From Candidatus Magasanikiibacteriota bacterium (GTDB lineage Bacteria > Patescibacteriota > Patescibacteriia > Magasanikbacterales > UBA922), in the NCBI GenBank assembly GCA_016207245.1, contig JACQQA010000004.1:19058-83057 (forward strand): DNA of 64,000 nucleotides. Reading direction: 5' to 3'. Below, piece after piece: positions 5,876 through 57,568 of this stretch; position 1 is the first letter of the stretch; each line of letters begins with the position of its first letter. The notes below the pieces were generated by a model. The model saw only the letters and a list, made by a program, of their open reading frames with translations. It was not told the DNA's origin and searched no databases. Position numbers and translations under genes: made by a program.

Positions 5876-5900
5876 CGCCTGCCTGCCGGCAGGCAGGGCG
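5876..5900. repeat. P20 palindrome copy (CGCCTGCCTGCCGGCAGGCAGGGCG) inside RNase P RNA
   Basis: Perfect GC-rich palindrome just 5' of GGAAAGTCCG. The same core is at 11367, 55277, 56071 and 62944. Confidence 0.85.
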
Positions 5901-8975: not shown

Positions 8976-10130
8976 ATGAATGTCGGTGTTGATATAAGGT
9001 GTTTGATGGAGAAAGAACGCACTGGTGTTGGGGAGTATGCTTTTGGGCTGCTTGATGCTGTCTTTAGAATTGACAAAGAGAACCAGTATTTTTTATTTTA
9101 TAATTCCCATAAAGATGTTTCGGAAGTTTTGCCAAAATGGGAGTATCCGAATGTGCGTTATGTAAGGACGAGGTGGCCGAATAAGATATTTAATGTTTTT
9201 TTGCTTTTGGGTTTAGTAAAATTAAATAAACTGATTGAAAGAAGATTGAAAGATTATAAGATTAAAAAATTAGATTGTTTTTTTTCTCCGAACTTGAATT
9301 TTACTTCTTTGACTCCCAAAACAAAATTTTTTTTGACTATTCATGATTTGTCTTTTGAATTTTTGCCCGAGTGTTACACATTAAAACAACGGCTGTGGCA
9401 CAAATTACTGCGGCCGAAAAAGCAGTGTCAACAGGCGAATATTATTTTTACGCCATCGGAGAGTACGAGGCGGGATGTGGCGTCGCGGTATTTTGTGGCA
9501 GAAAAAAAAGTTTTAATTTTGCGTCCGGGTTTATCCGCAACTATGACACAGAATACAGATAACAGAATGCAGGTGAGAGAGAAATATGATTTGCCGGAGA
9601 AGTTTATTTTGTTTTTAGGCACGATTGAGCCGAGGAAAAATGTTGAGGCGGCAATATCCGCTTTTCAGAATATCCACACACTTACACACTTACACACTTA
9701 CACACTTGTCATCGCTGGCGCCCGCGGATGGAAGAACGAAAATGTGATGCGCGTTATTGCCGACACACCAAACGTTCGCTACATTGATTACGTTGCCGAG
9801 GAAGACAGACCCGCATTGTATCGTTTAGCCAGTCTGTTTGTCTATCCGAGTTTATATGAAGGATTCGGTTTGCCGGTTTTGGAAGCAATGGCCTGTGGCA
9901 CGCCGATCATCACCAGCAATCGTTCTTCTTTGCCCGAAGTCGGCGGTGATGCTGTTTGTTATGTCAATCCGGCGAATGTCGCGGAGTTGAGCTGGGCGAT
10001 GGAGCGAGTGTTGTGCGATGATGAATTAGGAATTAAGAATTATGAATTAAGAGTTGCAAGACAAAAAGAGTGTGTGGAAAGATTTGATTGGGGGAGAAGC
10101 GCTGGGCAGTTTTTAAATTATCTAATTTGA
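8976..10130 (+). CDS. Glycosyltransferase family 4, carrying three in-frame repeat inserts
   Basis: YEGFGLPVLEAMACGTPIITS. Inserts at 9549-9572, 9677-9707 and 10023-10053. Confidence 0.85.
   Translation: MNVGVDIRCLMEKERTGVGEYAFGLLDAVFRIDKENQYFLFYNSHKDVSEVLPKWEYPNVRYVRTRWPNKIFNVFLLLGLVKLNKLIERRLKDYKIKKLDCFFSPNLNFTSLTPKTKFFLTIHDLSFEFLPECYTLKQRLWHKLLRPKKQCQQANIIFTPSESTRRDVASRYFVAEKKVLILRPGLSATMTQNTDNRMQVREKYDLPEKFILFLGTIEPRKNVEAAISAFQNIHTLTHLHTYTLVIAGARGWKNENVMRVIADTPNVRYIDYVAEEDRPALYRLASLFVYPSLYEGFGLPVLEAMACGTPIITSNRSSLPEVGGDAVCYVNPANVAELSWAMERVLCDDELGIKNYELRVARQKECVERFDWGRSAGQFLNYLI
9549..9572. repeat. Q-family element (CAGAATACAGATAACAGAATGCAG) in frame
   Basis: Matches 55164-55193, 62873-62902 and reverse copies at 56098-56133 and 62935-62980. 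Encodes QNTDNRMQ. Confidence 0.75.
9677..9707. repeat. Tandem octamer array (CACACTTA) x4 in frame
   Basis: Read directly; encodes HTLTHLHTYTL. A related array lies in the spacer at 45183-45216. Confidence 0.85.
10023..10053. repeat. E-family heptamer array GAATTAGG AATTAAG AATTATG AATTAAG in frame
   Basis: Encodes ELGIKNYELR. The copy in the fem gene (55255-55305) is interrupted by the P20 palindrome. Confidence 0.85.
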
Positions 10131-22054: not shown

Positions 22055-23763
22055 TAATGAAACCACAGGTTGAAAAAATATTGAGAGAGGCGGGTGTAAT
22101 TGGTGAAATTGAATTTACCATACCGCCAAACGCGGAAATGGGTGATTTGGCGTTTGCGTGTTTTGGTTTGGCGAAAGAATGGAAAATGAATCCGGCGGAG
22201 GCGGCGAAGAAAATCATCGTAGAGGCAGGTCGCGACCTGCCCGTACAGGTAGAAAGAATTGAGGCAGTCGGCCCGTATGTGAATTTTTATTTTAATGCGT
22301 CAGAGTTGGCGAAGTTGGTGTTGGGTAATTATGATAGGGACAGATCGCGACCTGTCCGTACCATCCGGCATGTTGGCAGGGGCAAGAAAACCATGGTTGA
22401 GTTCGCCCACCCCAACACCCATAAGCCCGTGCATATCGGCCATTTGCGCAACATGATTACCGGCGAGAGTTTGGTGAGGATTTTGGAGAATCAGGGCAAT
22501 AAAGTGGTGCGGGCGAATTATCAGGGCGATGTGGGGATGCATATCGCAAAATGTTTGTGGGGCATTTTGAGGATTTCAGATTTCAGATTTCAGATTTCAG
22601 ATTTGAAGAGAGCGGACGAACGGGCGAGGTTTTTGGGGGAGACTTACGCGATGGGCGGGCAGGCGTTTGAGAAAGATGAAACGGCGAAAAAAGAGATTGA
22701 AGCGCTGAACATCAAAATTTATAATAAAAACAAATCGGTCTGGGGTTTGTATAAAAAAACCAGAAAGTGGAGTTTGGATTATTTTGATTATATTTACAAA
22801 AAAGTGGGGGTAAAAAAATTTGACCGTTTGTATTTTGAATCGGAAACCTTTGAACTTGGCAAGAAGATTGTTCTGGCCGGACTAAAAAAAGATATTTTTA
22901 AGGCGAGCCAAGGCGCGATTATTTTTGAAGGGAGTAAATATGGTTTGCATGATCGGGTGTTTATCAGCAGCAAGGGACTGCCAACTTATGAAGCCAAAGA
23001 TCAGGGTTTAGCGGCGTTGCAGTTTAAAGAATATCATCCTGATTATATTTATCATGTTGTCGGAAAAGAACAAGCCGATTATTTTAAAGTAGTTTTTAAG
23101 GCGCTTGAATTCACTTTGCCGGAAAGCAAAGGCAAAGAAAAGCATTTGGTTTATGGCTGGGTGAGTTTGAAGGAGGGGAAAATGAGTTCCAGGACAGGAA
23201 ATGTTGTTTTGGCCGAGTGGTTGTTGGATGAGGTGGAGAAAAGAATTACCGAGATAATGAGAGACAGGGAGATTAAAAATAAAGAGAAAGTGATAAAAAA
23301 AGTGGCGAACGCGGCGGTGAAATATTCGATGTTAAAAACAGGCATTGGCAACGATATTGTGTTTGATTTTAACGAGTCGGTTTCGTTAAGCGGGGATAGC
23401 GGACCATACTTGCTTTATATAGTCGCCAGAATTAACAGCATACTAAAAAAATCAAAATTTAAAAATCAAAATTTAAAATTTTCGATGCCGACGAGTATTG
23501 AGCCGGAAGAAAAAAAATTATTATTGGGGCTGGTGAAGTTTGAGGAGGTGGTAAGAGAGGCGGGGGAAAAGAAAGATCCATCAGTGATCGCGAAATATTT
23601 GTTCGGTTTGGCGCAGGGATTTAATAATTTTTACCAATCTTGTCCGGTGCTGGAAGCGGAACCGGCAGCGCGAGTTTTTCGTTTGCGATTGATAAAGAAA
23701 ACAAAAGAAATAATGGAGAGCGGATTAAATTTACTAGGGATTGAGACGGTGGAGGAGATGTAG
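22051..23763 (+). CDS. argS: Arginyl-tRNA synthetase with four in-frame repeat inserts
   Basis: FAHPNTHKPVHIGHLRN and a C-terminal anticodon-binding domain. Inserts at 22224, 22338, 22573 and 23445. Confidence 0.9.
   Translation: MIMKPQVEKILREAGVIGEIEFTIPPNAEMGDLAFACFGLAKEWKMNPAEAAKKIIVEAGRDLPVQVERIEAVGPYVNFYFNASELAKLVLGNYDRDRSRPVRTIRHVGRGKKTMVEFAHPNTHKPVHIGHLRNMITGESLVRILENQGNKVVRANYQGDVGMHIAKCLWGILRISDFRFQISDLKRADERARFLGETYAMGGQAFEKDETAKKEIEALNIKIYNKNKSVWGLYKKTRKWSLDYFDYIYKKVGVKKFDRLYFESETFELGKKIVLAGLKKDIFKASQGAIIFEGSKYGLHDRVFISSKGLPTYEAKDQGLAALQFKEYHPDYIYHVVGKEQADYFKVVFKALEFTLPESKGKEKHLVYGWVSLKEGKMSSRTGNVVLAEWLLDEVEKRITEIMRDREIKNKEKVIKKVANAAVKYSMLKTGIGNDIVFDFNESVSLSGDSGPYLLYIVARINSILKKSKFKNQNLKFSMPTSIEPEEKKLLLGLVKFEEVVREAGEKKDPSVIAKYLFGLAQGFNNFYQSCPVLEAEPAARVFRLRLIKKTKEIMESGLNLLGIETVEEM
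22224..22247. repeat. P24 palindrome copy 1 (GGCAGGTCGCGACCTGCCCGTACA) in frame
   Basis: Encodes GRDLPVQ. See 22338 and 38002. Confidence 0.8.
22338..22362. repeat. P24 palindrome copy 2 (GGACAGATCGCGACCTGTCCGTACC) in frame, different frame from copy 1
   Basis: Encodes RDRSRPVRT. Confidence 0.8.
22573..22604. repeat. Tandem heptamer array (CAGATTT) x4.5 in frame
   Basis: Read directly; encodes ISDFRFQISDL. Confidence 0.9.
23445..23482. repeat. AT-rich 14-nt-period array (AAATCAAAATTTAA) in frame
   Basis: Encodes KSKFKNQNLKF. The 18-mer ATCAAAATTTAAAATTTT (23465-23482) recurs at 38947-38964. Confidence 0.85.
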
Positions 23764-27681: not shown

Positions 27682-30600
27682 ATGTCAAAAAAATGCAACA
27701 AACTTTTTACGATGTTGGTGGTATTTACTACTATTGTTTGGTCTTTGGGGATTTCAACATTGATTCCTCAAGCGGTTTTCGCGGCCACAGTTACTGTCGC
27801 CGGTCCGTATGATTTGTTGCCAACCGGCGGGATGACCGTCGCGGCCAGCAGTTATGATATTCCGGTTTTTCGTTTTGCTTTGAATAAGAGCTCCGGCGGC
27901 AGTGAGACGTTAACCAGCGTTACTGTCACTGTTACCAGCACTATCCCGACTAACAATGCCACTTTAGCCTCACACATTTCGCAACTAGTGGTTTTTAAAG
28001 ACAGTAATAACAACAATTATTTTGACCCTCAAAACGATAGTTTCGCCGGCACGCAAAGCACGGTTAACGTGGGTTCGGCCACGACGATTACCACCGGCAG
28101 CAACAATAGTTTGGCGGCAGACGGCGCTTTGCCAACCAGTTTTTTTGTGGCGATTAAAACAGCGTCCGGTTGGGCGGCTGGAGATTCTATTTATATTAAT
28201 TTCGCGGCGGACGGAATAGTGACGAATCCCTCGGGTAATTCACCGACCGTAACGCCTATTATCGGCTCCAGGGCAATATCTTTCAGCGGCGGCGGGGGAT
28301 GGAGCGGGTTTAGCATCAGCAGTGTTTCTTTTGTCAACGCGTCCAATGTGGATGTTTCTTTTACGGATAATTTGGATTTAAACACCGGCGCCGCCACTTC
28401 CACTGGCAATTATACTTTAAAAAACGCTTTGGGTGTTTCCCAAACAATCAGTTCCATTGTAGCTTTGCCGGATAATAAATCGGTCCGTTTGACCGTGGCT
28501 GGCGGGGTTACCATTCCTTCTGACGGAACCTATTCAGTTACTGTATCCAATGGAGTTAAAAATACTTTTGGTCAAGCCAATTCCGGTACCACCTCCTTTC
28601 CCATTATGAGCGCGCAAATGCCTTTATCTATTTCAGAGGTTAAGGTCGGTTCGGCTACGGATCCGTTTGATGAATTTATTGAAGTATATAACCGTTCTGG
28701 CGGAAATATTCCAACCTCCACTGTAAAATTGCATTTTGTGAACGCGGCCGGGACCGTAGATGTCAATGTTCCCTTGACTTTTCTTAATGAAAGCGTGGTG
28801 CCAAACATTCCATCTCATAAATTTCTATTGATCGCGCCAATTACTTCTTCCGCTTCTTCAACAGCAGACGCGGTTTATACCACCTCCACTCTTATTTCTT
28901 TGGTGTCCGGCGGCGCGGCGTATATCAGCAGCAGCGCGGCCAGCTCCACCGCGGTTATGGATAGAGTTTGCTGGGGCAGTCATGCTGTGTCAGGAGATTG
29001 CGAAGGCAGCGCGGCAAGCGGTTTAAGTACCAATGACGGCACCTCTATTGAACGCAAAGCATTTAATGATTCCACTTCAGCCAGCATGTTGGTTAGCGGC
29101 GCCGGTCCCGGGCAAGACGCTGATGATGGAAATGGCGTGGATACGCAGAACAATAATTTTGATTTTGTGGCACGGATTGTTCCCGAACCGCAAAACAGCC
29201 GCATTGCTTCAGCGGAAAATCCTACCGGCGGATCTTATGGCGGGACTAATAATCAAGCTCCCAGCATTCAGCACGCGCCGGTTTTCAAGGCCAGTATTGA
29301 TTCAATTCTAAATGTAGTAGCGAGAATTTTTGATGATGGCGGCACTGTTCCAGCAGGGAATACCCAGCTTATTTATTGTATCACTGCTTCCGCCACGTGC
29401 ACCCCTGCGTCATCAACGCCGATTTATGGCACAAGCATTGGTTCTGGCTGGTATAAATTCAGCACCACTTCAACTATCTCTACGGTTTTTGGCGCCAGTA
29501 AAACGCTCTTCAAATATTATCTTCAGGCGGCTGACTCGGCTTCACCGGCTAAAACTAAAGTTTATACCAATGACCCAACTTTTGACACTGTTACTTATGA
29601 TACCACCGGCACCGGCATTCAAACCGCGGCTCTGCAGCAAAGCAAATCTTTAGGTATCACTTTAAGTTCGGGTAATTTGGGTAGCGCCTCAATCATGGGC
29701 ACGGTTAATGACAGTTCGGGTGCGGCGGTCAGCGGCGCCACAGTTTGGATTGATGGCACGCAATTTGCCGCGACTACCGGCAGTGACGGCACATTTAGTT
29801 TTGCCAATGTCGGACCAACCGGCGGCGCTCAATTGAAAATCGCTAAAGACGGTTACGGCGATCAATCTCTTTCATTTTTTATTCCTTCTTCAGGTTTGGT
29901 TTCTTTGCCCGCCCTATCTTTGTATAGCGGCACTATGGGCGCGGGTGGCGACTATAATCAGCCTAAAGTAACAAATTCTTTTCCAGCTCCCGGTATGATG
30001 GGATTCCCGACTTTAAAGGGCGACGGTACGAATTCGTCTATAGAAGTTAATTTCAGCAAGGCCATGGACACCACTTCCTTTACTGGCGCCAATGTTTATC
30101 TGACCGAAGCTGGCAGCGGAACCCATATCGCCGGTTCAGTGGGAGTTGGTTCCACCACACAGGTTAAATTCACTCCGACTTCCGCGTTAACATCGGGCAA
30201 GAATTATACTCTGTTTTTAACGCCCGGCGTTAAAGATCCCGCCGGTAATCCAGTGGCTGGTAATAGCCCGGGAGGCAATTATATTTTGCCATTTTCCACA
30301 TCGGGAGGAATGTATGCCAGTGTCACGGATATTGGCGGAAATTTTGGCACCGGCAATGCTTTCCCTGCGTATGTGGTGGGCAGTCAGCCGGCTCCGGGCA
30401 AGCAGAGCGTGGCGCGCAACACCAAGGTTTTTGTGACTTTTTCCGAAGCCATGCAGAATTCCGCCACTAATTTGGCCAATATAAAATTGTATAAAGTCAC
30501 CAGCCCTTTCACTTCCAGTGAATCAAAAACCCAAGTGACAGTCACTAACAGTATTGATAGCAGTAATAAAATAGTTATTCTTACCCCATCAAGCAATCTG

Positions 30601-33600
30601 GATGTGAGTTCTCATTATCGCGTGGAAGTGTTGGGCGGTATGACGTCGTCCAAGGGGATTCCATTGGGTAATCCCGGAACATCCGGTTATCTGACCAGTG
30701 TGAAATATCAATCGGATTTTGATACCAGTTCCAGCGTGACCGGGGATCTTACCGCTCCGACTGTTGATAACACAATACCGGCTGATGCCGCAACCGGAAT
30801 TTCCACACTAAGACCAATCATCATCAACTTCTCCGAATCAATGAACCCGTCAACTATCACTGATACATCTGTAGTTATCAAACTTGGTTCTACAGCGATT
30901 GCCGGTAATTTGACTTATGACCCGAATAATTGGATGGCGGTTTTCACTCCTGACTACTCCTTAACTCCTACCAGCACTTATACAATTACAGTCACGACTG
31001 GCGCGCAAGATTTGGCGGGCAATGCTTTGGCATCAACGCTTTTGCGCACCTTCACTACTGGTAGCGCCGACACTTCTTCCCCAACAGTAGTCTCTGCTCA
31101 AGCCAATGATTATGCCTTGAAGATTGATTTTTCTAAGCCGATGCTGGCGGTTTCGGCAAGCGATATTAATTACGCGAACAGCGTCTTGAAACCGGCCAAT
31201 TATACAATTCATAGAGTTAATTCCGCGGGCGCGACGCAATCGACGATTGCGACTTCCACTGCCACCATAACTTATGACGCGGCCAGCCGCAGTGTGGCTT
31301 TGAATGGCATTACCGGTATTGTCGCCAATGATTTGATAAACATCAGCGTTGGCGGCGTGAAAGATATTGGTTTCAATAATATCGCTTCTGGTTCAGCCGC
31401 AGCCGTGACTACTACCGCGCAATCCAGCGCTAAGACCGGCAATTTTACTGGCGGCGGCATGGGCATGATGGGTCCGCAGTTTGACGCCGGCGGCAATATG
31501 ATGCAGGGCGGGATGATGGGCGCTCCGCCGGCCATGGTTGGCACATTTGTTGATTCAGGAATCGGTTTTGCTCCGGGCGTTAAAGTGTATCCATTCAATT
31601 CTATGGCTTCGGTCAGTACGATTTACGGCGTTGAAATTCCCATTTCCTACCAAATTCCAAACGCCGGGTTTATTGATATTGCTTTCCCGGATGGGACCGA
31701 TGTTGTTAACGCTAAAAAAGACACTGCCAGTCCGCCAAATAATGATTTGAACGGGCCAGGGCCGGGCGTAGTCGTGTTTGGCACGAGCGAAGGAACTTTG
31801 CCTTCCGGCTGGACAACCGGCGGCGCGGCTAGCGACGGAGTGATTGTGAATACTGATTCGCGCACTGTTAGAGTTATTTTGGGAGCAGTGGCCACGCGCC
31901 GCGGCAGCGCCAATTTGACCTCCGGCGATGGCGATCAGCATGATTTTATACGTTTGGATATCGCGCAAATCACCAATCCTTCCAGCGCCACAAAAGTCGG
32001 CATGAGTGGAAATTCCGCGACTGTTTCCACTAAAAAAGCCGATGGTACGGTATTAGAAACCCTATCATCTGGTTCGTTCTCAACTTCGGCCGCCGGCAGT
32101 TTCACTGTGCGCGGCCGCGTGATGGCTGGCGCCAGCGGAGTCAACGGCATTAATGTTTTCTTGATGTCGCCAATGACCGGTCCGCAGTCAACTTCAACCG
32201 CGACAGGACGGTTCAATGGCCAGACCGGAGAATTTATGTTCCAAAATCTGGTGGCTGGAAATTATATGTTAGGAGCGGAACAGTTTGCCAAATCCGGCGC
32301 CACGAGTTATACAGCCGGTTTCCCGGCGCCGATTAATGTCAATTCCACCAACTGCGCGTCCGATATCTGCAGTCAAAATGTTACTGTCGTGGATGCTTCC
32401 ACCGGAGTGGCGGTGACATTAAATATCAGCGGCACTTTCAGTAGCAACGCGATTGATATTTTTGCCGGCGGCCCCGGTTCATTTAGAAAAGCCACGTCAA
32501 CTTTAGACGGCGTGCTTGTTGCTGACACCTCCAATTCAATAAAATTAAACGCTAATGGCGTATGGATGGTTGGTTTTGGTCCGCAAATGTCCACCGAAAT
32601 GTTCGGCAAGAGCGGTCCTTCAGCACCTACCACCTGGATGCCGCCCAAACCGCAAGAAGTGCAGGTGAGCGGCTGTCCGACTGCTTGCGCGGTTAATCCA
32701 ACCACCTTGACATTCAATGTTTCAACCGCAAACAAGACAATTAAATTCACGGTTAAAGATGCTTCCAGCAACGCGATTGGTAAAGCAAACGTCTTCGCTT
32801 ATTCGCCGGCTTCCAACGCGGGGAACAGCACCATGGCGGACGCTGACGGCACCGGCTCAATTAATTTGTCTTATGGCACGTATAAGATTGGCGCGAGTGT
32901 TTCCGGCATGCCCGGCGGCGTGGAGAGGTCAATACTTATTAAAGATGATGGCGGCGCTGATAAAGTGTTTGTTGATGGTTCAAGCACCGGCATCGCTTTA
33001 TCCAGCATGACCAGCGCGAGCTTGACACTGACTATCAGCAAGCCATCCTATACCATTTCCGGCCAAGTGACTGATGGCACCAATCCGGTCGCTAACGCGC
33101 CGGTAAGCGCTTATCGCACTGACGGACCAGGTAATTCAAACACCTTTACCAATTCTTCCGGAAACTACACATTGTATGTGGCCAATGGAACTTGGAAAGT
33201 GCAAGCCTTTACTCCTGATTATGGCAAATTACCGGAGCAGACAGTGACTATCAGTGGTTCCAATTCCAGCGGTAAGAATTTTGAACCAAATACCAGCGCG
33301 GTAACTTATGCCACCATTACTAAGAGCGTTGGCAATGACGCGGATGCCGATGGCGTGCTTGACGCCGGAGAAGGAACCAGCAACGTACAGTTAATTGTTG
33401 AAGGTACGACCGGCGATTTGAATAATGACGGCGACACTAGCGACAGCGGCGAAAATGTCAGCTACGTTAATAGCGGTGTGACTGATACCAATGGCAGTTC
33501 TACTCTTAAACTTCCACCCGGCACTTACACAATGAAGGCCTATTCGTCAATTCAGGGCGAGATGTCATCTTCAACACAGAGTATTGTGGTCAATGGCGCC

Positions 33601-36546
33601 GGCACAGTTACCACCGCGCCCTATGATATTCTGGCGCCAAAGACCGGCGCGGTGACCATCAACCTTTTGGATTCTAATGGTACTGCTACGAGTAGCATGA
33701 AAGCAGTGGTAGAGTTTATGCAAATTGGCGGCAAGATTGATAAGACCGAATCGTTCAGTGGAACCGCCTCCAGCACTATTTCTTTGTCGCAATTTGATGT
33801 GGCTAACGCCCTCAATGCGGTTACGAGCACCAACCCGACTAACATGTACCTAATGAATGTGACCATTCCCGGTGTCTCGGATAGCGGTTTGATCGCGTAT
33901 GGCGCGGATAGCGACACCGTACTTGCGACCTCCACCGCGGCCAGTGGCTATTGGAAGGTGGAAGTGGACGCTAACACAGAATCAATTAATATAAAATTAC
34001 CGGTTCTTAATTATGTCAGTGGCACGGTTAAAGACGGCGCTGGCAGCGCTGTGCCAGACGCCACGGTGCATTTTGAGAATTCTTCAACGAATGAGAAAGT
34101 TGACGTGCAAGCTGACACCAGCGGCAATTATTCCACCAAGCTTTCCAGCGCGACATATTTAGTCAGCGCCACTAAAGACGGCTACATTGATACCGCTTCC
34201 AGCGTAGCGGTAAGCGCGAGCGGCGCGTTAGCCGATTCAGCCACAACAATGACCGCCGCTTCTTACACGATTTCCGGCACGATTACTGCCGGCAGTTCAG
34301 CGGCATCCGGCGCCACAGTGCGCGCGGAAAAATTGGGTGGCGGTATAGTAACTGCCACCACTGGTTCGGACGGCACCTATTCTTTAAAGGTTATTAACGG
34401 TAATTGGAAAGTTTCTGCCGCAGCCGATGGCTATACTGAAGGCACTTATAGTTCTGTTGTGGCTGTCAGTAGCGCCAATGTTTCTGGCATCAATCTTACT
34501 CTTTCCACCACCGCCACTTCGCTTTCCGGCTCAACTTCCCAATCTGTTACTCCGCAAAATGGCGGTTCAATGACAGACTCTTCCGCCGGCGCTTCGGTTA
34601 AAGCTTCAGAGTCGGCGTTGGCTATTTCCGCCAATCCATACACTTTGAATGATAAGGAAGTTTCCAATGTGGTCGGCGGCAATGCCGGAACACCGATCAG
34701 CGGTGAAGCAAAAACAATCAGCAGTTATGATAATGATGGTAATGCCGTAACATTGCTAAAAGACGATGTCGCTGTTAGTGCCAGTTATTCCAGCAGTGAT
34801 ATGACAACGGCTTTGGGCACCTTAACTTTGGCAAAATTAGAAAAAGTGCAAATGGGTTCATGGGATGAGACTGCGGATAATTGGCAGACTTTGCCGACAA
34901 CTGTCGCATATAAAGATTCCAGTGGTAAATTTATTGAACCATCAGTAAGCGCCGCAACCGTCGCTTACACCGGCCAAACTTCCCACTTTTCTTCCTTCAA
35001 TCCGATTGCTCCGTCTGATGGTTCGGCGCCAGCTGTTATAACCAATGTTGCGGCGGTTGCCGGCAGTAATTCCGTATCCGTAACTTGGACAGCCGGTAGC
35101 GAGGGTGATTTACAAGGTTATGATATTTACCGGTCAACTTCGGCGAACGGTACTTATTCATCGCTTGGATCATCAACATCCAATAGTTATACCGATTCTT
35201 CAGCCGTTAATGGCAGCACCTATTATTATAAAGTAACGGCAACTGATACCGGTGGTTTGGAATCAGATCTTTCTTCAGCCTCTAATGCTGTCACACCAAA
35301 CAGTGCCAGTGGAGGTGGTGGAGGAGGCGGTGGTGGTGGTGGAACAAGTTCACCGCCAACATTCGGCGCAGTTCCGGTTTCAGTGGACGGCAATGCAGCA
35401 AAGAGTTCTTCTATCGTTACGTTGAAATTTAGCGTAACCAACGCGGTTCAAATGGCCATTTCAGAGAAAGCTGATTTTTCCGGCGCCGCGTGGGAAAGTT
35501 ATTCTTCCACCAAGAAACAGACCTTATCTAGCGGTCTGGGCGCTAAGATATTGTATGTAAAATTCCGCAGCGCCAGCGGCGAGACAACTGCCATTAAGAC
35601 AATTGACATTATGGTAGTTTCCGAAGCTACTGTGGAAGAGAAGAAGGCGGCGGAGGAATCTACTGTTGTTGAAAAGACGACTACCGCCACCTGTCCATTG
35701 ACTATCGGCAGTGCCTATAAGCTCGGCAACTCGGCGGCGGTTTTCTATGTTACCTCTGATTGCGCCAAGCGTCCGTTCAACAAAGCTAACGTATTTTTCA
35801 CCTATTTTACTTCGTGGTCAGATGTTAAAACCACTACCGCGGGAGTGTTGAATGATCTGAAGAATGATGCTATTGGTTTTATGCCATGGGGTCCGAAATA
35901 TGATCCGAAATACGGCGCGTTAGTGAAAATCGTTACGGATCCGAAAGTGTATCTGTTGCTTGGCACAGAAAAATATTGGATAACATCAGAAACAGTATTT
36001 GAGGGTCTTGGTTATGCTTGGAATTGGGTGGAAGATATTGATGAGGCGTTGTTAAATAAATATACCGTTGGTTCGGAGATCACTTACACCAATCATCATC
36101 CGAATTATACCCTGATTAAGTATAAGAATAGTTCCAAAGTGTACCGTTTGGAACCGGATCCGAAAGACGCGGCCAAGCAAGTCAAGCGCCATGTGAAAGA
36201 TGAAGCAGCTTTTAACGCTTTGACTTTCCGTTGGGATAGAATTGTGACGGTTGATAGCAAAGAAGCGTATGCGGACGGCGAAACATTGACAGCGCCGGCG
36301 AGCGTAAAGAAAGTTGACAAAGGAGTGTACAAGTTCAGTTTGACTCTGCAACAGGGGGACAGCGGCGCGGAAGTGACAAAATTGCAGGAAAAGCTTGAAG
36401 CTCTCGGCTATTTTTCCGCTGAACCCACCGGCACTTTCGGCGCCAAAACCAAAGAAGCGGTGATAAAATTTCAGCAGGCTTATAAATTAGCGCCTTACCC
36501 GGGCGTGGTTGGCAAGGCCACCAGAGACGTGCTTAATAGTCTTTGA
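27682..36546 (+). CDS. Giant secreted cell-surface protein (2954 aa): signal peptide, lamin-tail domain, many Ig-like / carboxypeptidase-regulatory-like repeats, FN3, poly-Gly linker, C-terminal peptidoglycan-binding domain
   Basis: Signal peptide MSKKCNKLFTMLVVFTTIVWSLG...AVFA. LTD-like ISEVKVGSATDPFDEFIEVYN. Repeated GxVxDxxGxxVxxAxV...DGxYxF modules. FN3 YDIYRS...YYYKVTATD. G11 run at 35311-35343. PG_binding_1-like tail GDSGAEVTKLQEKLEALGYF. Confidence 0.9.
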   Translation: MSKKCNKLFTMLVVFTTIVWSLGISTLIPQAVFAATVTVAGPYDLLPTGGMTVAASSYDIPVFRFALNKSSGGSETLTSVTVTVTSTIPTNNATLASHISQLVVFKDSNNNNYFDPQNDSFAGTQSTVNVGSATTITTGSNNSLAADGALPTSFFVAIKTASGWAAGDSIYINFAADGIVTNPSGNSPTVTPIIGSRAISFSGGGGWSGFSISSVSFVNASNVDVSFTDNLDLNTGAATSTGNYTLKNALGVSQTISSIVALPDNKSVRLTVAGGVTIPSDGTYSVTVSNGVKNTFGQANSGTTSFPIMSAQMPLSISEVKVGSATDPFDEFIEVYNRSGGNIPTSTVKLHFVNAAGTVDVNVPLTFLNESVVPNIPSHKFLLIAPITSSASSTADAVYTTSTLISLVSGGAAYISSSAASSTAVMDRVCWGSHAVSGDCEGSAASGLSTNDGTSIERKAFNDSTSASMLVSGAGPGQDADDGNGVDTQNNNFDFVARIVPEPQNSRIASAENPTGGSYGGTNNQAPSIQHAPVFKASIDSILNVVARIFDDGGTVPAGNTQLIYCITASATCTPASSTPIYGTSIGSGWYKFSTTSTISTVFGASKTLFKYYLQAADSASPAKTKVYTNDPTFDTVTYDTTGTGIQTAALQQSKSLGITLSSGNLGSASIMGTVNDSSGAAVSGATVWIDGTQFAATTGSDGTFSFANVGPTGGAQLKIAKDGYGDQSLSFFIPSSGLVSLPALSLYSGTMGAGGDYNQPKVTNSFPAPGMMGFPTLKGDGTNSSIEVNFSKAMDTTSFTGANVYLTEAGSGTHIAGSVGVGSTTQVKFTPTSALTSGKNYTLFLTPGVKDPAGNPVAGNSPGGNYILPFSTSGGMYASVTDIGGNFGTGNAFPAYVVGSQPAPGKQSVARNTKVFVTFSEAMQNSATNLANIKLYKVTSPFTSSESKTQVTVTNSIDSSNKIVILTPSSNLDVSSHYRVEVLGGMTSSKGIPLGNPGTSGYLTSVKYQSDFDTSSSVTGDLTAPTVDNTIPADAATGISTLRPIIINFSESMNPSTITDTSVVIKLGSTAIAGNLTYDPNNWMAVFTPDYSLTPTSTYTITVTTGAQDLAGNALASTLLRTFTTGSADTSSPTVVSAQANDYALKIDFSKPMLAVSASDINYANSVLKPANYTIHRVNSAGATQSTIATSTATITYDAASRSVALNGITGIVANDLINISVGGVKDIGFNNIASGSAAAVTTTAQSSAKTGNFTGGGMGMMGPQFDAGGNMMQGGMMGAPPAMVGTFVDSGIGFAPGVKVYPFNSMASVSTIYGVEIPISYQIPNAGFIDIAFPDGTDVVNAKKDTASPPNNDLNGPGPGVVVFGTSEGTLPSGWTTGGAASDGVIVNTDSRTVRVILGAVATRRGSANLTSGDGDQHDFIRLDIAQITNPSSATKVGMSGNSATVSTKKADGTVLETLSSGSFSTSAAGSFTVRGRVMAGASGVNGINVFLMSPMTGPQSTSTATGRFNGQTGEFMFQNLVAGNYMLGAEQFAKSGATSYTAGFPAPINVNSTNCASDICSQNVTVVDASTGVAVTLNISGTFSSNAIDIFAGGPGSFRKATSTLDGVLVADTSNSIKLNANGVWMVGFGPQMSTEMFGKSGPSAPTTWMPPKPQEVQVSGCPTACAVNPTTLTFNVSTANKTIKFTVKDASSNAIGKANVFAYSPASNAGNSTMADADGTGSINLSYGTYKIGASVSGMPGGVERSILIKDDGGADKVFVDGSSTGIALSSMTSASLTLTISKPSYTISGQVTDGTNPVANAPVSAYRTDGPGNSNTFTNSSGNYTLYVANGTWKVQAFTPDYGKLPEQTVTISGSNSSGKNFEPNTSAVTYATITKSVGNDADADGVLDAGEGTSNVQLIVEGTTGDLNNDGDTSDSGENVSYVNSGVTDTNGSSTLKLPPGTYTMKAYSSIQGEMSSSTQSIVVNGAGTVTTAPYDILAPKTGAVTINLLDSNGTATSSMKAVVEFMQIGGKIDKTESFSGTASSTISLSQFDVANALNAVTSTNPTNMYLMNVTIPGVSDSGLIAYGADSDTVLATSTAASGYWKVEVDANTESINIKLPVLNYVSGTVKDGAGSAVPDATVHFENSSTNEKVDVQADTSGNYSTKLSSATYLVSATKDGYIDTASSVAVSASGALADSATTMTAASYTISGTITAGSSAASGATVRAEKLGGGIVTATTGSDGTYSLKVINGNWKVSAAADGYTEGTYSSVVAVSSANVSGINLTLSTTATSLSGSTSQSVTPQNGGSMTDSSAGASVKASESALAISANPYTLNDKEVSNVVGGNAGTPISGEAKTISSYDNDGNAVTLLKDDVAVSASYSSSDMTTALGTLTLAKLEKVQMGSWDETADNWQTLPTTVAYKDSSGKFIEPSVSAATVAYTGQTSHFSSFNPIAPSDGSAPAVITNVAAVAGSNSVSVTWTAGSEGDLQGYDIYRSTSANGTYSSLGSSTSNSYTDSSAVNGSTYYYKVTATDTGGLESDLSSASNAVTPNSASGGGGGGGGGGGTSSPPTFGAVPVSVDGNAAKSSSIVTLKFSVTNAVQMAISEKADFSGAAWESYSSTKKQTLSSGLGAKILYVKFRSASGETTAIKTIDIMVVSEATVEEKKAAEESTVVEKTTTATCPLTIGSAYKLGNSAAVFYVTSDCAKRPFNKANVFFTYFTSWSDVKTTTAGVLNDLKNDAIGFMPWGPKYDPKYGALVKIVTDPKVYLLLGTEKYWITSETVFEGLGYAWNWVEDIDEALLNKYTVGSEITYTNHHPNYTLIKYKNSSKVYRLEPDPKDAAKQVKRHVKDEAAFNALTFRWDRIVTVDSKEAYADGETLTAPASVKKVDKGVYKFSLTLQQGDSGAEVTKLQEKLEALGYFSAEPTGTFGAKTKEAVIKFQQAYKLAPYPGVVGKATRDVLNSL

Positions 36547-38903: not shown

Positions 38904-38946
38904 TTTTGTTTTTTATAAGTTTTACTGTATAATTTAAAGTGTAAAT

Positions 38947-38990
38947 ATCAAAATTTAAAATTTTTACATTTTAATTTTTAATTTTTTATT
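38947..38990. repeat. AT-rich array in the pgk-SIMPL spacer sharing an 18-mer with argS
   Basis: ATCAAAATTTAAAATTTT followed by TACATTTTAATTTTTAATTTTTT. Confidence 0.75.
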
Positions 38991-39909: not shown

Positions 39910-42900
39910 ATGCCTTACGATGCAAATAAAAACGAATTAGAAATTCTTAAGTTTTGGCAAGACAACAAAATTTTTGAAAAATCTATTTCTGAACGCCCGG
40001 AAAATAAGCCATATGTATTTTATGACGGGCCGCCATTTGCCACCGGCCTGCCGCATTACGGCCATATTTTAGGCTCGGTGATTAAAGACGTGGTGCCGCG
40101 TTATCAGACCATGAGAGGTCATCGCGTGCGCCGGCGCTGGGGTTGGGATTGCCATGGTTTGCCGATTGAAAATTTAGTTGAAAAAGAACTGGAAGTTTCC
40201 GGAAAAAAACAGATTGAGGAGAAATTGGGAGTCGAAAAATTTAATGATACCTGCCGGTCAAAAGTTTTAATGTACACAAAAGAGTGGAAGAAAATGGTGG
40301 ACCGCATCGGTCGCTGGATTGAGTTTGATAATGCCTACAAAACCATGGATTCCACGTATATGGAATCAGTTTGGTGGGCGTTGAAAACAATTTGGGGCAA
40401 GGGTTTGATTTATGAAGGCCGGAAAGTTTTGATGTATTGTCCGCATTGCGAAACTCCGGTGTCAAAAGCCGAGGTGGCGATGGATGATAGTTATAAAGAT
40501 ATTACGGAAGAAGCGGTCGTTGTGAAATTTAAGATACAAGACACAAGAAACAAACAAATTACAAAGTCAAAATTCAAAATTTTAAAAGACAGGTCGGTAT
40601 ATATTCTTGCTTGGACGACGACGCCGTGGACATTGCCCGGGAATGTGGCGCTCGCTGTTGGGAAAGATATTGATTATGTATTGGTTGAAGTTGATGGTGA
40701 AAATCTGATTTTGGCTAAAGATAGAGTTGAGGCCGTAATGGGAGATAAGAGATATGAGATAAAGCCTGCCCTGAGCTTGTCGAAGGGAGATAAAATGAAA
40801 GGCTCGGATTTGGTTGGTTTGGAATATGAACCGCTGTTTGAGATTCCGGCGATTCGGGAGACCAGTAAAAAAGCGTGGTATGTTACGACCGCGGATTTTG
40901 TTACCACGGAAGAAGGCACTGGCGTGGTGCACACCGCCGTGGTTTACGGCGAGGACGACTATAATTTAGGAATAAAAATCGGTTTGCCGGTAGTGCCGCT
41001 TTTGAATGATGCCGGACACTTCAATGAATTCGCGCCGGAATTTATCCGCGGCCAATATTTTAAAAAATCGGAGAAATTAATTAAAGATGATCTGGAAAAC
41101 CGCGGCTTGTTGTTCGCGCGGGAAAATCATACGCATTCTTATCCGCATTGCTGGCGGTGCGACACGCAATTATTTTACAACGCGATTTCCGCGTGGTTTA
41201 TTGATATTCAAAAAATAAAAAAGCGCCTGATTAAATTAAACGAAAAAATAAATTGGTTTCCGGAGCACTTGAAACACGGCCGCTTTTTGAATATTTTGGA
41301 AACCGCGCCGGATTGGAACATCTCGCGCAATCGGTATTGGGCCACGCCGTTACCGTTTTGGCGTTGCGGAGAAGATGGCTGTGATAATGTTGCGTGCGTT
41401 GGAAGCGTTGCTGAGTTGAAAGAGAAGGCAATTAATTTTGAGGAAGCGTATGACGGTAAAAAAATTGAAGAGATGGATCTGCATAAGCATTTGATGGATA
41501 AAATCAAATTAAAATGCGACAAGTGCGGCGGAGAAATGAGTCGGACGCCGGAAGTGATTGATTGTTGGGTTGAATCCGCGTCAATGCCGTTTGCTGAATT
41601 TCATTATCCGTTTGAAAATAAAGCCGTATTTGAAAAACGTTTTCCGGGCCAGTACATTGGCGAATACATCGCTCAAACCCGCGCCTGGTTCTACTATATG
41701 CATGTCATGGCGACTCTGCTGTTTGACGATATCAGTTTTGAAAATGTCGTCTGCACCGGCACGATTTTGAATGAGAAAGGCGAGAAATTATCCAAATCTA
41801 AACGCAATTATACGGACCCGTGGGTGATTATTGAACAGTACGGCGTGGACGCTTTGCGCTATTACCTGATGACTTCGGTGGCCATGCAAGCCGATGATTT
41901 GTATTTCAACGACCGCGAGGTGCGCGATGTTTATAATAAAGTGATAAACATGCTGTGGAATGTGGTGGAGTTTTATAAAATGTATGCTGGCGAAAGTCAT
42001 AAAGTCACAAAGTCTGTAAAGTCAGAGAATGTGTTGGACAAGTGGATAATGGCGAGGTTAGGGCAGTTGGTCCGCGAGGTGACGGAAAATTTGGATAAAT
42101 ATGACACGGTGCGGGCTGGCCGGCCGATTAAGGATTTTATTGATGATCTTTCAACTTGGTACTTGCGCCGTTCGCGCGATCGGTTCAAGGGGGACAATGC
42201 CGAAGACAAACAGGCGGCATTAGCCACTTTGCACGATGTTCTTTATATCCTTTCAAAAGTGATAGCGCCGTTTGTGCCGTTTATGGCAGAGAGAGTGTAT
42301 CATGTAACATGGAACATGGAACATGGAACAACGAGAGAATCGGTGCATTTAGAGAGTTGGCCTACGCCGGCAGATGTTACCAATGATGATGTTCAATTGT
42401 TGCAAGATATGGGAAAGGCGAGGAAAATTGTAGAGATGGGATTGGCGTTGCGGGCAGAAGCCGGGGTCAGAGTTCGCCAACCACTATCTATGTTGCAAGT
42501 TATAGGTTACAAGCTACAATATGAATTGGCGAAGATTGTGAAAGAAGAATTGAATGTGAAGGTGGTTGAAAATGTCGGAGATATTGAAGTTGTTGAAAAT
42601 ATTGTGGTGAAAGAAGGCGGGGAATTGAAGGTGGCGTTAGACACGCGTTTGACCAATGAATTAAAAAAAGAGGGTTTGATACGTGAAATCATCCGCGCGA
42701 TTAACCAGACGCGGAAAGAACAGAAATTAACGATTCAAGATAGAGTGACGATTATTTATGAGACCGATGATGAAATATTAGAGCAGGTTTTTGCTGAATT
42801 TGGAGAGGAAATTAAAAAAGCCGTGCTTGCGGACGAGTTAAAGGAGGAGAAAAACGACGGTGCAGAAGCTGATTTAGACGGTCATAAAATTAAACTGTGG

Positions 42901-44164: not shown

Positions 44165-45182
44165 AATCGCTTTTCTTTACAATGTGCGGCGCAATTATCC
44201 GGATCCCAATGAAAAACAGGTTCAGCTTGACACTGATTTTGACGACCCGGCAACGATTGATTCGTTTGTCAAGCATCTACAAAATTTGAATTTAACCGTT
44301 TTGCCGATTGAAGCGGATGAATCAGCGTATTTGCGCTTGCAGGAAAATAAAGACAAAATAGATCTGGTGTTTAATTTCGCGGAAGGTCTACACGGCCGTG
44401 ATCGCGAGTGCCAGATTCCCGCTATGTTGGAGATGCTAAAAATTCCTTACACCGGCGGTTCGCCTCTGACTGAAGCTCTGGTTTTGGATAAGGCGATTGC
44501 CAAAGATGTTTTACGGTCTCATGGGGTTCCGGTTCTACCACATCAAGTATTTTCAACTGAAACCGAAGAGCTGGATCTGGAATTAAAATTTCCTTTGATT
44601 GTAAAACCGAACTCGCAGGGTTCATCAGCCGGCATAACCAATGACAGCGTAGTTGAAAACGAGAATGAGTTGCGCCGCCAGTTGAAATTTGTTATCAGCA
44701 ATTTTAAACAAAAAGCGTTGGTAGAACCGTTTTTGGACGGTCGGGAATTTTCCGTCCCGATGTTGGGAAATAATCCGCCGGAAATTTTACCGATAATTGA
44801 ATCTGACCACTCAACTTTGCCGGCCGGATTAAAACCGCTCGATTCTTTGGAAGTAAAATGGATTGTGGAGGAAGAAAGCGGCGGCGCGAATTTTATTTGT
44901 CCGGCCAAAATCAGTCCTGATTTAGAAGAAAAAATTAAACAGATTTGTTTACAAACATGGGAAGTTTTGCGGCTATGCGATTTTTGCAGAATTGACATCC
45001 GCTGCGATCGCGCCGGCAATCCGTATGTTTTGGAAGTTAATTCTCCGGCCGGATTAATTCCGCCGGAAGTATCCATGACTTCGTATTTCCCGCTCTCCGC
45101 CCGCGTCGCCGGAATGGATTATGAAACGCTTTTAAAGAAAATTCTTTCCGCCGCCTGTCATCGCTACGGCATTACTTATTAA
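44130..45182 (+). CDS. ATP-grasp ligase, D-alanine--D-alanine ligase-like (2 of 2)
   Basis: IPYTGGSPLTEALVLDKAIAKDVLRSHGVPV, FPLIVKPNSQGSSAGI, ALVEPFLDGREFSV, VLEVNSPAG. Overlaps the upstream gene; alternative ATGs at 44148 and 44154. Confidence 0.8.
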   Translation: MNPPRMNMSLNRIAFLYNVRRNYPDPNEKQVQLDTDFDDPATIDSFVKHLQNLNLTVLPIEADESAYLRLQENKDKIDLVFNFAEGLHGRDRECQIPAMLEMLKIPYTGGSPLTEALVLDKAIAKDVLRSHGVPVLPHQVFSTETEELDLELKFPLIVKPNSQGSSAGITNDSVVENENELRRQLKFVISNFKQKALVEPFLDGREFSVPMLGNNPPEILPIIESDHSTLPAGLKPLDSLEVKWIVEEESGGANFICPAKISPDLEEKIKQICLQTWEVLRLCDFCRIDIRCDRAGNPYVLEVNSPAGLIPPEVSMTSYFPLSARVAGMDYETLLKKILSAACHRYGITY

Positions 45183-45216
45183 CTTATTTACTTACACACT
45201 TACATACTTACAAACT
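45183..45216. repeat. CTTACACA-type array in the spacer upstream of kamA
   Basis: CTTATTTACTTACACACTTACATACTTACAAACT; same unit family as 9677-9707. Confidence 0.75.
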
Positions 45217-48595: not shown

Positions 48596-48648
48596 ATTGT
48601 TAAATTATTAAATTGCTAAATTGTTATTTTCGTAGTTCGTAAGTTCGC
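48596..48648. repeat. Heptamer arrays (TAAATTG-type, then GTAGTTC/GTAAGTTC) right after the eno stop
   Basis: ATTGTTAAATTATTAAATTGCTAAATTGTTA. The related copy ACTAAATTGTTAAATTGTT lies after the fem stop (56041-56067). Confidence 0.75.
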
Positions 48649-56040: not shown

Positions 56041-56067
56041 TTGAATTACTAAATTGTTAAATTGTTT
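56011..56067. repeat. AAAGTC-type array forming the fem C-terminus, then a TAAATTG-type array after the stop
   Basis: GTCAAGTCCATAAAGTCTTTAAAGTTG (KSIKSLKL-stop) followed by TTGAATTACTAAATTGTTAAATTGTT. Confidence 0.75.
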
Positions 56068-56070
56068 TTC

Positions 56071-56133
56071 GCCTGCTTGCCGGCAGGCAGGCATTTCGTA
56101 TGTGTCCTGTTATCTGCGTCCTGCATCCTGTCG
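56071..56133. repeat. P20 palindrome (GCCTGCTTGCCGGCAGGCAGGC) next to a reverse Q-family element
   Basis: The palindrome is followed by GTCCTGTTATCTGCGTCCTGCATCCTG. Confidence 0.8.
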
Positions 56134-57458: not shown

Positions 57459-57568
57459 AGGAATATTTTTAAAAGTATGGTAAGATTGATTAAAGTGCAG
57501 ATATTGTATATGAGTAAAGATGTTTTGTCAAATCAAAGAGTATTAGTATATTGGTATATTTAATTTTT

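Follow-up and report, generated by a model that had tools for sequence, protein, structure and literature searches.

How can tandem arrays with units of 7 or 8 nucleotides (nt), which are not multiples of three, stand open inside essential genes? The question is raised by a 64,000-nt stretch of a Candidatus Magasanikbacteria metagenome-assembled genome, hereafter the window, which was found to contain about 30 tandem arrays, nearly all of period 7 or 8, the majority of them in frame within ArgRS, IleRS, TrmD, two GT4 glycosyltransferases and FemAB (hosts by Pfam). The arrays are here ascribed, with a probability of about 0.6, to slippage in the register of the repeat unit together with a dispersed hairpin element resembling repetitive extragenic palindromic (REP) sequences and transposable elements of the miniature inverted-repeat type (MITEs), both filtered by translation.

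Arrays of period 7 and 8 in the window and in the Candidate Phyla Radiation

The arrays were called with Tandem Repeats Finder (TRF) and with a census of near-exact runs of our own. TRF returned 65 rows for the window, the strong ones mostly of period 7, 8, 14 or 16. The census was found to contain seven near-exact runs of period 7, three of period 8, four of period 14 and one of period 16, followed by none or one for each of the remaining periods between 1 and 30; in 50 third-order Markov simulations of the window the mean was 0-0.04 runs per period. The head-to-tail units of 5-11 nt beyond chance that characterise heptanucleotide long simple sequence repeats (SSRs) were found both with TRF and in the census set against these simulations. 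The arrays are listed below; labels such as L001 and L002 denote the loci of relatives used in the comparisons.

9242-9272, + strand: (AAGATTNA)x3.9 in the GT4 gene 8976-10130.
9676-9707, + strand: (ACACACTT)x4, perfect, peptide HTLTHLHTYT, in the GT4 gene 8976-10130.
10023-10052, + strand: (GAATTAN)x4.3, peptide ELGIKNYEL, in the GT4 gene 8976-10130.
11106-11168, + strand: left arm of the CAA-heptad palindromic element, (AAGAAAC)x3.3 followed by ACAAATT/AAAAATT units, core at 11112-11134, in the GT4 gene 10537-11766.
11315-11403, + strand: (TCACATCA)x4.6 at 11315-11351 in GT4, followed by the GC-rich palindrome CCCGCCTGCCGGTGAGGCAGG at 11367-11387 with flanking TTTAACAA repeats.
22572-22604, + strand: (GATTTCA)x4.7, copies 100% identical, peptide ISDFRFQISDL, ArgRS residues 174-185, hot spot 1 (TRF).
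23447-23481, + strand: (AAAAATCAAAATTT)x2.3 as period 14, or period 7 x4, ArgRS residues 466-477, linker before the DALR domain, hot spot 2.
40531-40581, + strand: left arm of the CAA-heptad element, core at 40537-40559, in frame in IleRS.
41993-42024, + strand: (AAAGTCAT)x3.9, a degenerate 8-nt array with 76% matches, IleRS residues 695-705.
42301-42330, + strand: (CATGGAA)x4.3, IleRS residues 798-807.
55164-55299, + strand: FemAB region with (CAGAATG)x4.3 at 55164-55193 and (GAATTAN)x3.1 at 55255-55276 (TRF and sequence).
62352-62394, + strand: (CATTAAAA)x5.2, TrmD residues 73-87.
62664-62772, + strand: hairpin-type insertion in TrmD with (CAATTAC)x4.4 at 62671-62701, a loop containing CAAACAAAT, and (AATTGGA)x4.6, the right array being reported by TRF as (AAATTGG)x5.7 at 62724-62764.
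38931-38990, no strand: spacer arrays of AATTTAA and AATTTTT types downstream of pgk, with stops in every frame (TRF).
45173-45216, no strand: spacer array (ACTTAYNN)x5.5 (TRF).
48596-48647, no strand: spacer arrays (ATTGTTAA)x3.9 and (TTCGTAAG)x2.5 (TRF).
56041-56120, no strand: spacer array (TAAATTGT)x2.1 (TRF 56050-56066), followed by a GC palindrome and CTG-heptads (TRF).
62880-62990, no strand: CAG-heptads at the 3' end of trmD, GC palindrome at 62944-62963 and CTG-heptads, forming a composite gene-end hairpin (TRF).

An earlier note on this DNA had placed arrays in argS, ileS, trmD and GT4 genes. The arrays were recovered with TRF and on the sequence at the positions it gave or a few bases off, the gene names agreed with Pfam, and FemAB was added as a further host. 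Its statement that the arrays are stop-free held for every genic array of the window, each of which was open in the reading frame of its host, whereas all but one of the spacer arrays had a stop-containing unit on the + strand. Its assignment of the DNA to the Candidate Phyla Radiation (CPR) is right, since the ArgRS protein was found to be identical to one annotated as Candidatus Magasanikbacteria.

Genes and spacers were found to share units. The 18-mer ATCAAAATTTAAAATTTT, which the note had reported and which proved real, was common to argS (23465) and the spacer after pgk (38947), and ACTTACACACTTACA was common to a GT4 array (9680) and the spacer array 45173-45216 (45190). The unit TAAATTGT occurred in the spacers 48596-48647 and 56050 and also at the start of the ArgRS of L004, a 75%-identical relative; there the first 11 codons (MELLNCQIVKLL, L004 9999-10029) were made of (AAATTGTT)x3.9. 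The sharing arises because several arrays are arms of a dispersed palindromic element, described below.

For the survey of the CPR, ArgRS loci and 10 kb of sequence on either flank were taken from 80 genomes, each representing a species (1.35 Mb in all), including Magasanik-, Falkow-, Woese-, Parcu-, Peri- and Gracilibacteria among others. In the same census, period 7 accounted for 81 arrays, period 8 for 17 and period 14 for 28, and periods 3, 4, 5 and 6 for 1, 2, 2 and 2, respectively. Of the period-7/8 arrays, 81 of 102 (79%) lay within open frames of at least 100 codons. The array phenomenon is CPR-wide; the note had described it as a feature of the genes of this window, where it is real but to which it is not peculiar, the excess of periods 7 and 8 being present both in the window and in the 80 loci. 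The heptamer units of genic arrays coincided in 29 pairs against 5.8 +/- 3.2 in simulations, and an explanation of this roughly fivefold sharing by the small number of AT-rich stop-free heptamers alone (222 necklaces) was rejected. Telomerase-like templated addition was also rejected, the units differing from locus to locus.

Translation as a filter and the evolution of the host loops

Of the perfect genic heptamer arrays, 42 were 17-20 nt long and 7 were 21-29 nt long, followed by 26 of 30-33 nt and 3 of 36-40 nt, whereas the intergenic ones numbered 18, 4 and 0 in the first three classes, with one further array of 41 nt. The class of four copies and a fraction (4.x) was enriched in genes over spacers (Fisher p = 0.006). 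This genic pile-up can be understood because one original copy and three added ones give 4.x copies, 21 nt being the smallest step that keeps the frame. Three-unit steps were found directly in host proteins. In IleRS, (CATGGAA)x4.3 corresponded to an exact insertion of seven residues (VTWNMEH), or three units, relative to the solved IleRS 8c8u, and in TrmD (CATTAAAA)x5.2 corresponded to an exact insertion of eight residues, again three units, relative to 8byh. In the GT4 arm 11106-11168 the first three units had been made identical, and the ACAAATT part was 21 nt (seven residues) longer than in the orthologue of L111 (78% protein identity). The IleRS array 41993-42024 showed no net insertion relative to 8c8u.

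Stop codons were found to leave their mark on the units. GAATTAN arrays were present in GT4 (10023-10052), in FemAB (55255), in L111 and in the ArgRS of L016, and the unit threatening an in-frame TAA was T-ended in every case; in GT4 10023-10052 this is the third unit, and the TAA is avoided. Where the perfect unit of a genic array would give an in-frame stop, the copies were degenerate at that point, and the right arm of the TrmD hairpin departed from the perfect complement exactly at the base that would create TAA. On the coding strand A exceeded T in 48 of 61 genic arrays. The encoded peptides were hydrophilic (mean hydropathy -0.92), with K, S, I, N and Q as abundant residues; those encoded by the arrays and the element include ISDFRFQISDLK, VTWNMEHGTTR and the type QDTRNK(I/K)Q(T/I)N. 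The filters of frame, stop and strand would be absent if the arrays were excised before translation, and from these traits of the sequence we therefore infer translation of the arrays into passenger residues.

At 58084-58110, in the open reading frame (ORF) 57551-58186, an 8-nt array rich in T (TTTTATTA) was found to encode the hydrophobic peptide GFIILLAFIIGGF. It is an exception to the A-rich and hydrophilic rule and may lie in a membrane segment.

In the AlphaFold2 (AF2) model of ArgRS (mean pLDDT, the predicted local distance difference test, 88.5), array 1 was found to form a short helix between helices 163-174 and 188-208 (pLDDT about 90), and array 2 lay in a low-confidence linker (pLDDT 63 for residues 471-480). 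The TrmD arrays were located in the interdomain linker, and the GT4 arm 11106-11168 in the interdomain linker between two Pfam domains.

At ArgRS site 1 the unit was GATTTCA in the window, AAATCCG in L008, AAACTCA in L002 and L007 and AATTTCC in L014, followed by a decayed GATTTCA in L015. One register was kept throughout and the loop was constant at 22 residues from WG to FLG. In L004, L005, L006 and L066 the length was kept and the sequence was degenerate; more distant CPR ArgRS were found to contain the conserved non-repetitive motif xxLxxEYExxKK. ArgRS site 2 contained heptamer arrays in at least 15 other CPR ArgRS genes and in at least 15 lineages, with related units (AAAGTCA, AAATCCG, AAATCCC, AAATTTC and others); there one array gave no gain of length over none, and two arrays gave 7-10 additional residues. 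At two GT4 sites an 8-mer array of the window had a 7-mer array as its counterpart in a relative, the lengths differing by at most three residues: the site of 9242-9272 held (ACAAATT)x3 in L111, and that of 9676-9707 held a 7-nt array (GACTTAG) in a relative, differing in length by one residue. The GT4 array 10023-10052 was conserved in L111, and the GT4 composite 11315-11403 was an in-frame insertion of about 24 residues. The idea that arrays always add length was rejected for ArgRS sites 1 and 2 and the two GT4 sites.

Since different uniform units occupy loops of constant length, arrays often overwrite loops and appear to be repeatedly re-homogenised. The route would be either collapse and re-expansion under selection on loop length, or out-of-register copying without change of length.

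Two further variable stretches were observed in these hosts. The GT4 gene 10537-11766 contained an in-frame insertion of 11 residues relative to L111 at 10660-10735, with the inverted repeat CCTCCCCCCGTTCGGCT / AGCCTACAAGGGGGAGG, and the equivalent position of L111 contained TACGAAC-type heptamers. ArgRS residues 94-104 (window 22330-22362, DRDRSRPVRT; pLDDT below 50) were not a tandem array; on alignment they are a further lineage-specific insertion, the stretch being a gap or variable in most orthologues.

Selection of the repeats as protein, in the form of flexible linkers or heptad-periodic surface segments, would fit their location in linkers and loops, the hydrophilic peptides, the 7-residue period that a 7-nt DNA period yields and the conservation of loop length while the sequence turns over. 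It is considered very improbable, because the copies were nucleotide-identical with synonymous positions included, the same units were found in spacers and there with stops, 8-nt arrays gave 8-residue periods and the peptides at one site were unrelated between species; selection on length alone would not yield perfect DNA repeats. The encoded residues are probably passengers, which may have no function of their own.

Copy number within species was checked in ten ArgRS clusters at 90% identity or more. All length differences were start-codon calls, except for one indel of six residues at a palindrome; three-unit differences were observed between species or distant homologues and none within these clusters. 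The loci of L002 and L003, from two samples, were identical in sequence and hence uninformative on copy-number variation. Given this stability on short time scales, the arrays are not phase-variable loci. Phase variation classically acts on non-triplet SSRs within genes, and the data are metagenome assemblies, so that contingency loci or assembly artefacts were considered; they deserve hardly any credence, as the hosts were single-copy essential genes, no length variation was found among strains, the arrays (19-60 nt) were shorter than a sequencing read, independent assemblies agreed (L002 with L003, and L001 with L004 at the arrays) and arrays recurred in hundreds of independent contigs.

The claim of the note that the arrays reflect frequent insertion or expansion followed by purifying selection was supported by the three-unit insertions, the genic 4.x-copy class and the contrast of stops between genes and spacers. 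Its parts fared differently: expansion or insertion stands as an inference, while "frequent" does not apply on population time scales, there being no copy-number variation in the ArgRS clusters; several arrays are net insertions, whereas many overwrite loops of conserved length; and local expansion is not the source of several arrays, which are arms of the dispersed palindromic element.

A dispersed hairpin element of CAA-heptads

The longest dispersed repeat in the window was found to be a 23-mer common to the GT4 and IleRS arrays, spanning the junction of two unit types, and the two copies were 91% identical over 44 nt as counted on the sequences. For the degenerate pattern CAAGAMACAAGRWACAAAYAAAT, the matches listed included more than 120 metagenome contigs. 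The left arm was found to contain heptads ending in CAA, namely (ATAAC) CAAGAAA CAAGATA CAAACAA ATyyCAA TAACCAA and so on, followed by a short variable loop, at times with a GC-rich hairpin, and then by the complementary right arm. Among the matches listed, 62 non-redundant complete copies had medians of 116 nt for length, -20.9 kcal/mol for folding free energy (dG) and, relative to dinucleotide-shuffled sequences, -5.1 for z. The arms varied by whole heptads, and the element lacks sharp ends, its outer heptads being variable in number; some arms contained perfect arrays, such as (CTCAAAC)x6 in L183 and (TCAAAAT)x4 in L126. The termini consisted of the core and its reverse complement, that is, of terminal inverted repeats as in MITEs. 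Spacers of L012 and L002 were found to contain similar composites, paired in inverted orientation.

The element was found mostly in spacers, with whole copies or single arms also in coding sequence; 29 of 66 single-arm copies among the matches listed lay in long open frames. In every copy deep inside an ORF the CAA arm was on the coding strand. The core was in frame in GT4, IleRS, MnmA, SecA, MetH, TGT, a UvrD-like helicase, TopA, a radical SAM protein and Dus, with a passenger peptide near QDTRNK(I/K)Q(T/I)N, and the MnmA insertions occurred at the same site in two genomes. The IleRS copy at 40531-40581 was an insertion of 15 residues relative to 8c8u. The TrmD segment 62664-62772 was a complete hairpin variant, with CAA-heptads, the CAAACAAAT loop and TTG-heptads, adding about 30 residues (dG -18.5 kcal/mol, z -4.8), in which the arms pair at six of seven positions per unit. 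The GT4 composite array showed no structure above chance (z -0.28), and this copy is therefore a single arm. No Rfam family was matched by seven element-bearing loci, only sub-threshold generic hairpins (miRNA precursors) being returned. The hairpin element is a candidate for a new repeat family.

If all arrays were arms or footprints of such a REP/MITE-like element, inserted by a transposase or recombinase, no true local slippage would be needed. This was considered unlikely, although it would explain the occurrence of the 23-nt core in more than 120 contigs (among the matches listed) and in unrelated genes, the hairpin architecture, the sharing of units above chance, the 7-8-nt direct repeats flanking GC palindromes, the inverted arrays on both sides of an inserted gene in L002, and the presence or absence of copies at orthologous spacers, as with the L012 copy between iPGM paralogues against a spacer of 2 nt in the window. 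The window was found to contain just two copies of the core and one hairpin against about 30 arrays with unrelated units, several of them of period 8. Independent insertions would not yield the same site and register with different units between species, nor does this origin fit the 21-nt difference inside one arm between orthologues. In addition, neither a transposase nor a consistent target duplication was found, no transposase test having been made, and among the 80 labelled loci the strict core was limited to a few Magasanikbacteria, whereas heptamer arrays were far wider and occurred in many CPR lineages.

That the arrays are maintained because their DNA or RNA has a function within genes, as sites of a protein with a 7-nt footprint, as pausing or terminating hairpins, or as signals of translation speed, was judged less probable still. 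Perfect arrays persisted in one loop across deep divergence, the core of the element was more conserved than the neighbouring protein-coding sequence, and complete elements were stable hairpins by gene ends, bordered on both sides by runs of A and T in the manner of a bidirectional terminator; for CspB, binding of one heptamer by each protein is reported (PMC4679880). These points are opposed by the free variation of units between species at one site, by the decay of the array in L004, L005, L006 and L066, by the many unrelated host genes, in which the arrays share no placement with respect to starts or stops, by the single arms that make up most genic copies and cannot form a hairpin, and by the lack of an Rfam family for the seven loci.

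In the combined reading of slippage and hairpin dispersal, tandem duplication or loss would take place in a 7-nt, less often 8-nt, register, most probably by strand slippage at replication or repair, where AT-rich units or the periodic CAA/TTG anchors would mis-pair one or more units out of register. A REP/MITE-like hairpin family, with arms of CAAGAAA CAAGATA CAAACAA ATnnCAA and so on and their complement, would be dispersed in addition. Within genes translation would act as a sieve, tolerating only three-unit changes (21 or 24 nt) and passing only units that are stop-free in all three phases, mainly on the A-rich strand. The survivors would be located in linkers and variable loops and be translated as passenger residues. 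An established array would be long-lived at its site, and time and again it would be made uniform anew or exchanged for another, either through collapse and renewed expansion or through copying out of register; related species would have different uniform units in loops of near-constant length because of this.

Several points were found to weigh against this reading. No slippage intermediate or copy-number polymorphism was found, the array length being the same throughout ArgRS variants of at least 90% identity, and no array differed between L001 and L004 (99.6% identity). For slippage it is atypical to gain three units in one step from about 1.x copies, and stepwise gains of single units would pass through frameshifts in essential genes. 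Arrays without net gain of length need an extra assumption, either compensating deletions or length-neutral homogenisation. The census covered the CPR, and the exclusion of non-triplet repeats from genes rests on the literature; the intergenic sample of the length test was small (23 arrays). For the hairpin element, viral contigs were without a copy of the core, and no transposase, target-site duplication or pair of empty and filled sites was identified, no transposase test having been made.

A bolder and decidedly tentative proposal is that the CAA/TTG-heptad element and the simple heptamer arrays are two faces of one undescribed CPR system, mobile or self-propagating with a register of 7 nt, perhaps by way of a protein or a polymerase complex contacting single heptads, which would be terminator-like in spacers and would continuously rewrite the surface loops of essential proteins.

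GC-rich palindromes, separate from the arms of the element, were found near several arrays and often within them. The palindrome CCTGCCTGCCGGCAGGCAGG was present in four copies in the window (5878-5897, 55280-55299, 56078-56091 and 62944-62963), those at 56078 and 62944 being bordered by CAG/CTG heptads. The FemAB copy CCTGCCGGCAGG was in frame (MPAGRQ) and interrupted the (GAATTAN) heptamer array; the GT4 variant at 11367-11387 was in frame (PPAGEAG) between TTTAACAA direct repeats and was absent from the L111 orthologue. These palindromes look like a second, REP-like family that targets or nucleates arrays, and the 7-8-nt direct repeats around them may be just array units. Because the palindromes have unit-length direct repeats on both sides, transposon footprints, formed by insertion and excision with 7-8-nt duplications, were considered as the source of the arrays; they were not adopted, since one unit per cycle would frameshift genes and most arrays were without a nearby palindrome.

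Related palindromes were observed in ArgRS of other genomes. Between L001 (10294-10302) and L004 (10288-10313) the sole difference was an in-frame palindrome AGACGCA-loop-TGCGTCT at about ArgRS residues 98-103, where the loops differed, with a length difference of 18 nt. At ArgRS site 2 of L055 two tandem copies of a similar palindrome (VETHSNASVQETHSNASV) were present. In-frame GC-rich palindromic repeats (CHSEERSDEESL, ILRTKPEGSQILRFAQNDN) were found in L011 (10490-10590 and 11411-11540), L074 (11273-11400) and L009 (4494-4590), at the same two ArgRS hot spots that heptamer arrays occupy elsewhere.

In L002 the arrays (AAATTTG)x3 at 1011-1030 and (AAATTTC)x3 at 1435-1453 were mutually inverted and flanked a small 23S_rRNA_IVP (PF05635) gene between the iPGM and DHH genes, a position at which the window contained no gene and a 16-nt spacer. 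The only period-3 array of the window (35309-35342) was found in an ORF of 2954 residues (27682-36546), and L001 contained a CARDB/RHS-repeat protein of 2738 residues downstream of argS.

Known repeat systems and significance for the CPR

REP sequences and the related bacterial interspersed mosaic elements (BIMEs), SPRITEs and MITEs are high-copy intergenic or terminator-like hairpin repeats. The element described here resembles them in its high-copy intergenic hairpins by gene ends and in inverted arms that can be read as terminal inverted repeats. Unlike REPs and MITEs, it has arms of AT-rich heptad arrays in place of a short GC-rich stem, and no RAYT/transposase partner or consistent target duplication was seen, no transposase test having been made. 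Contingency loci differ from the arrays in that the latter have essential hosts and no length variation among strains.

The short tandemly repeated repetitive (STRR) sequences of heterocystous cyanobacteria have the canonical units CCCCAGT, TTGGTCA and CAACAGT. The comparison with them drawn in the earlier note is apt, as in both cases a limited set of units forms heptamer tandem arrays dispersed in the genome. The units found here are AT-rich, however (GATTTCA, AAATTTC, AATTACG and others), the host belongs to Magasanikbacteria and 81 of 102 arrays lie in open frames; with units, host and location all different, they fall outside STRR. The STRR arrays and the related GGGNATC and TAACTGA arrays are dispersed heptamers, often in four copies and with mixed heptamers adjacent, and STRR-type arrays are overwhelmingly intergenic, under-represented on the coding strand and mostly of G-rich units (PMC4692102, PMC4679880). 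For Xanthomonas and Nostoc, G-quadruplexes were invoked to explain the preference of G-rich heptamers for four copies (PMC4692102). In the CPR the preference was found with AT-rich units, for which G-quadruplexes are impossible, and in genes only; it is ascribed here to the frame rule.

An excess of long SSRs of 5-11 nt in prokaryotes, with heptanucleotides dominant, was reported in the survey of Mrazek et al. 2007, as summarised in PMC4679880 and PMC4692102; slippage of a polymerase that contacts about 7 nt was proposed as the cause, and the units in coding regions were multiples of three. The CPR arrays resemble these heptanucleotide long SSRs in being head-to-tail, far beyond chance and by far commonest at period 7. 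They differ in that 79% of the period-7/8 arrays lie in long open frames, including those of aminoacyl-tRNA synthetases, with a three-unit signature, and in that their hosts are small-genome CPR bacteria, outside its scope.

The Rickettsia palindromic elements (RPE; Ogata et al. 2000, as summarised in PMC10969869) are inserted in frame into many housekeeping genes. Both systems are dispersed palindromic families, in frame in unrelated housekeeping genes at fold-compatible sites and with a recognisable passenger peptide. The CPR element has a host of another phylum, and its core, which matched no Rfam family, is called unrelated without direct comparison to the RPE consensus sequences, which places it outside the RPE families; most of its genic copies are single arms of about 45-60 nt, whereas an RPE is a whole element of about 150 bp. 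Since its arms are built of 7-nt periodic units, the CPR element merges, unlike RPE, into simple tandem arrays.

The excess of period 7 in prokaryotes is already known, whereas the common occurrence of non-triplet arrays inside essential CPR genes is apparently undescribed. Literature searches on CPR and Patescibacteria found no description of such arrays, in agreement with the novelty that had been supposed for CPR housekeeping genes.

Repeats that are not multiples of three are usually deemed incompatible with coding or are taken for phase switches; here, throughout a large bacterial radiation, aminoacyl-tRNA synthetases and enzymes of tRNA modification were found to contain them as common and stable passengers. 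The three-unit rule, together with the strand and stop filters, shows how strongly mutational bias can shape protein loops in small genomes. When CPR marker proteins are aligned, placed in phylogenies or predicted in structure, the arrays and the QDTRNK-type peptide will introduce distortions, and the arrays could serve as strain or lineage markers. Should the hairpin element prove mobile, systematic in-frame colonisation of housekeeping genes by a palindromic element would be well documented for only the second time; and if element and arrays were indeed one system, that system would correspond in the CPR to the Rickettsia palindromic elements and would give these reduced genomes a means of evolving loops rapidly.

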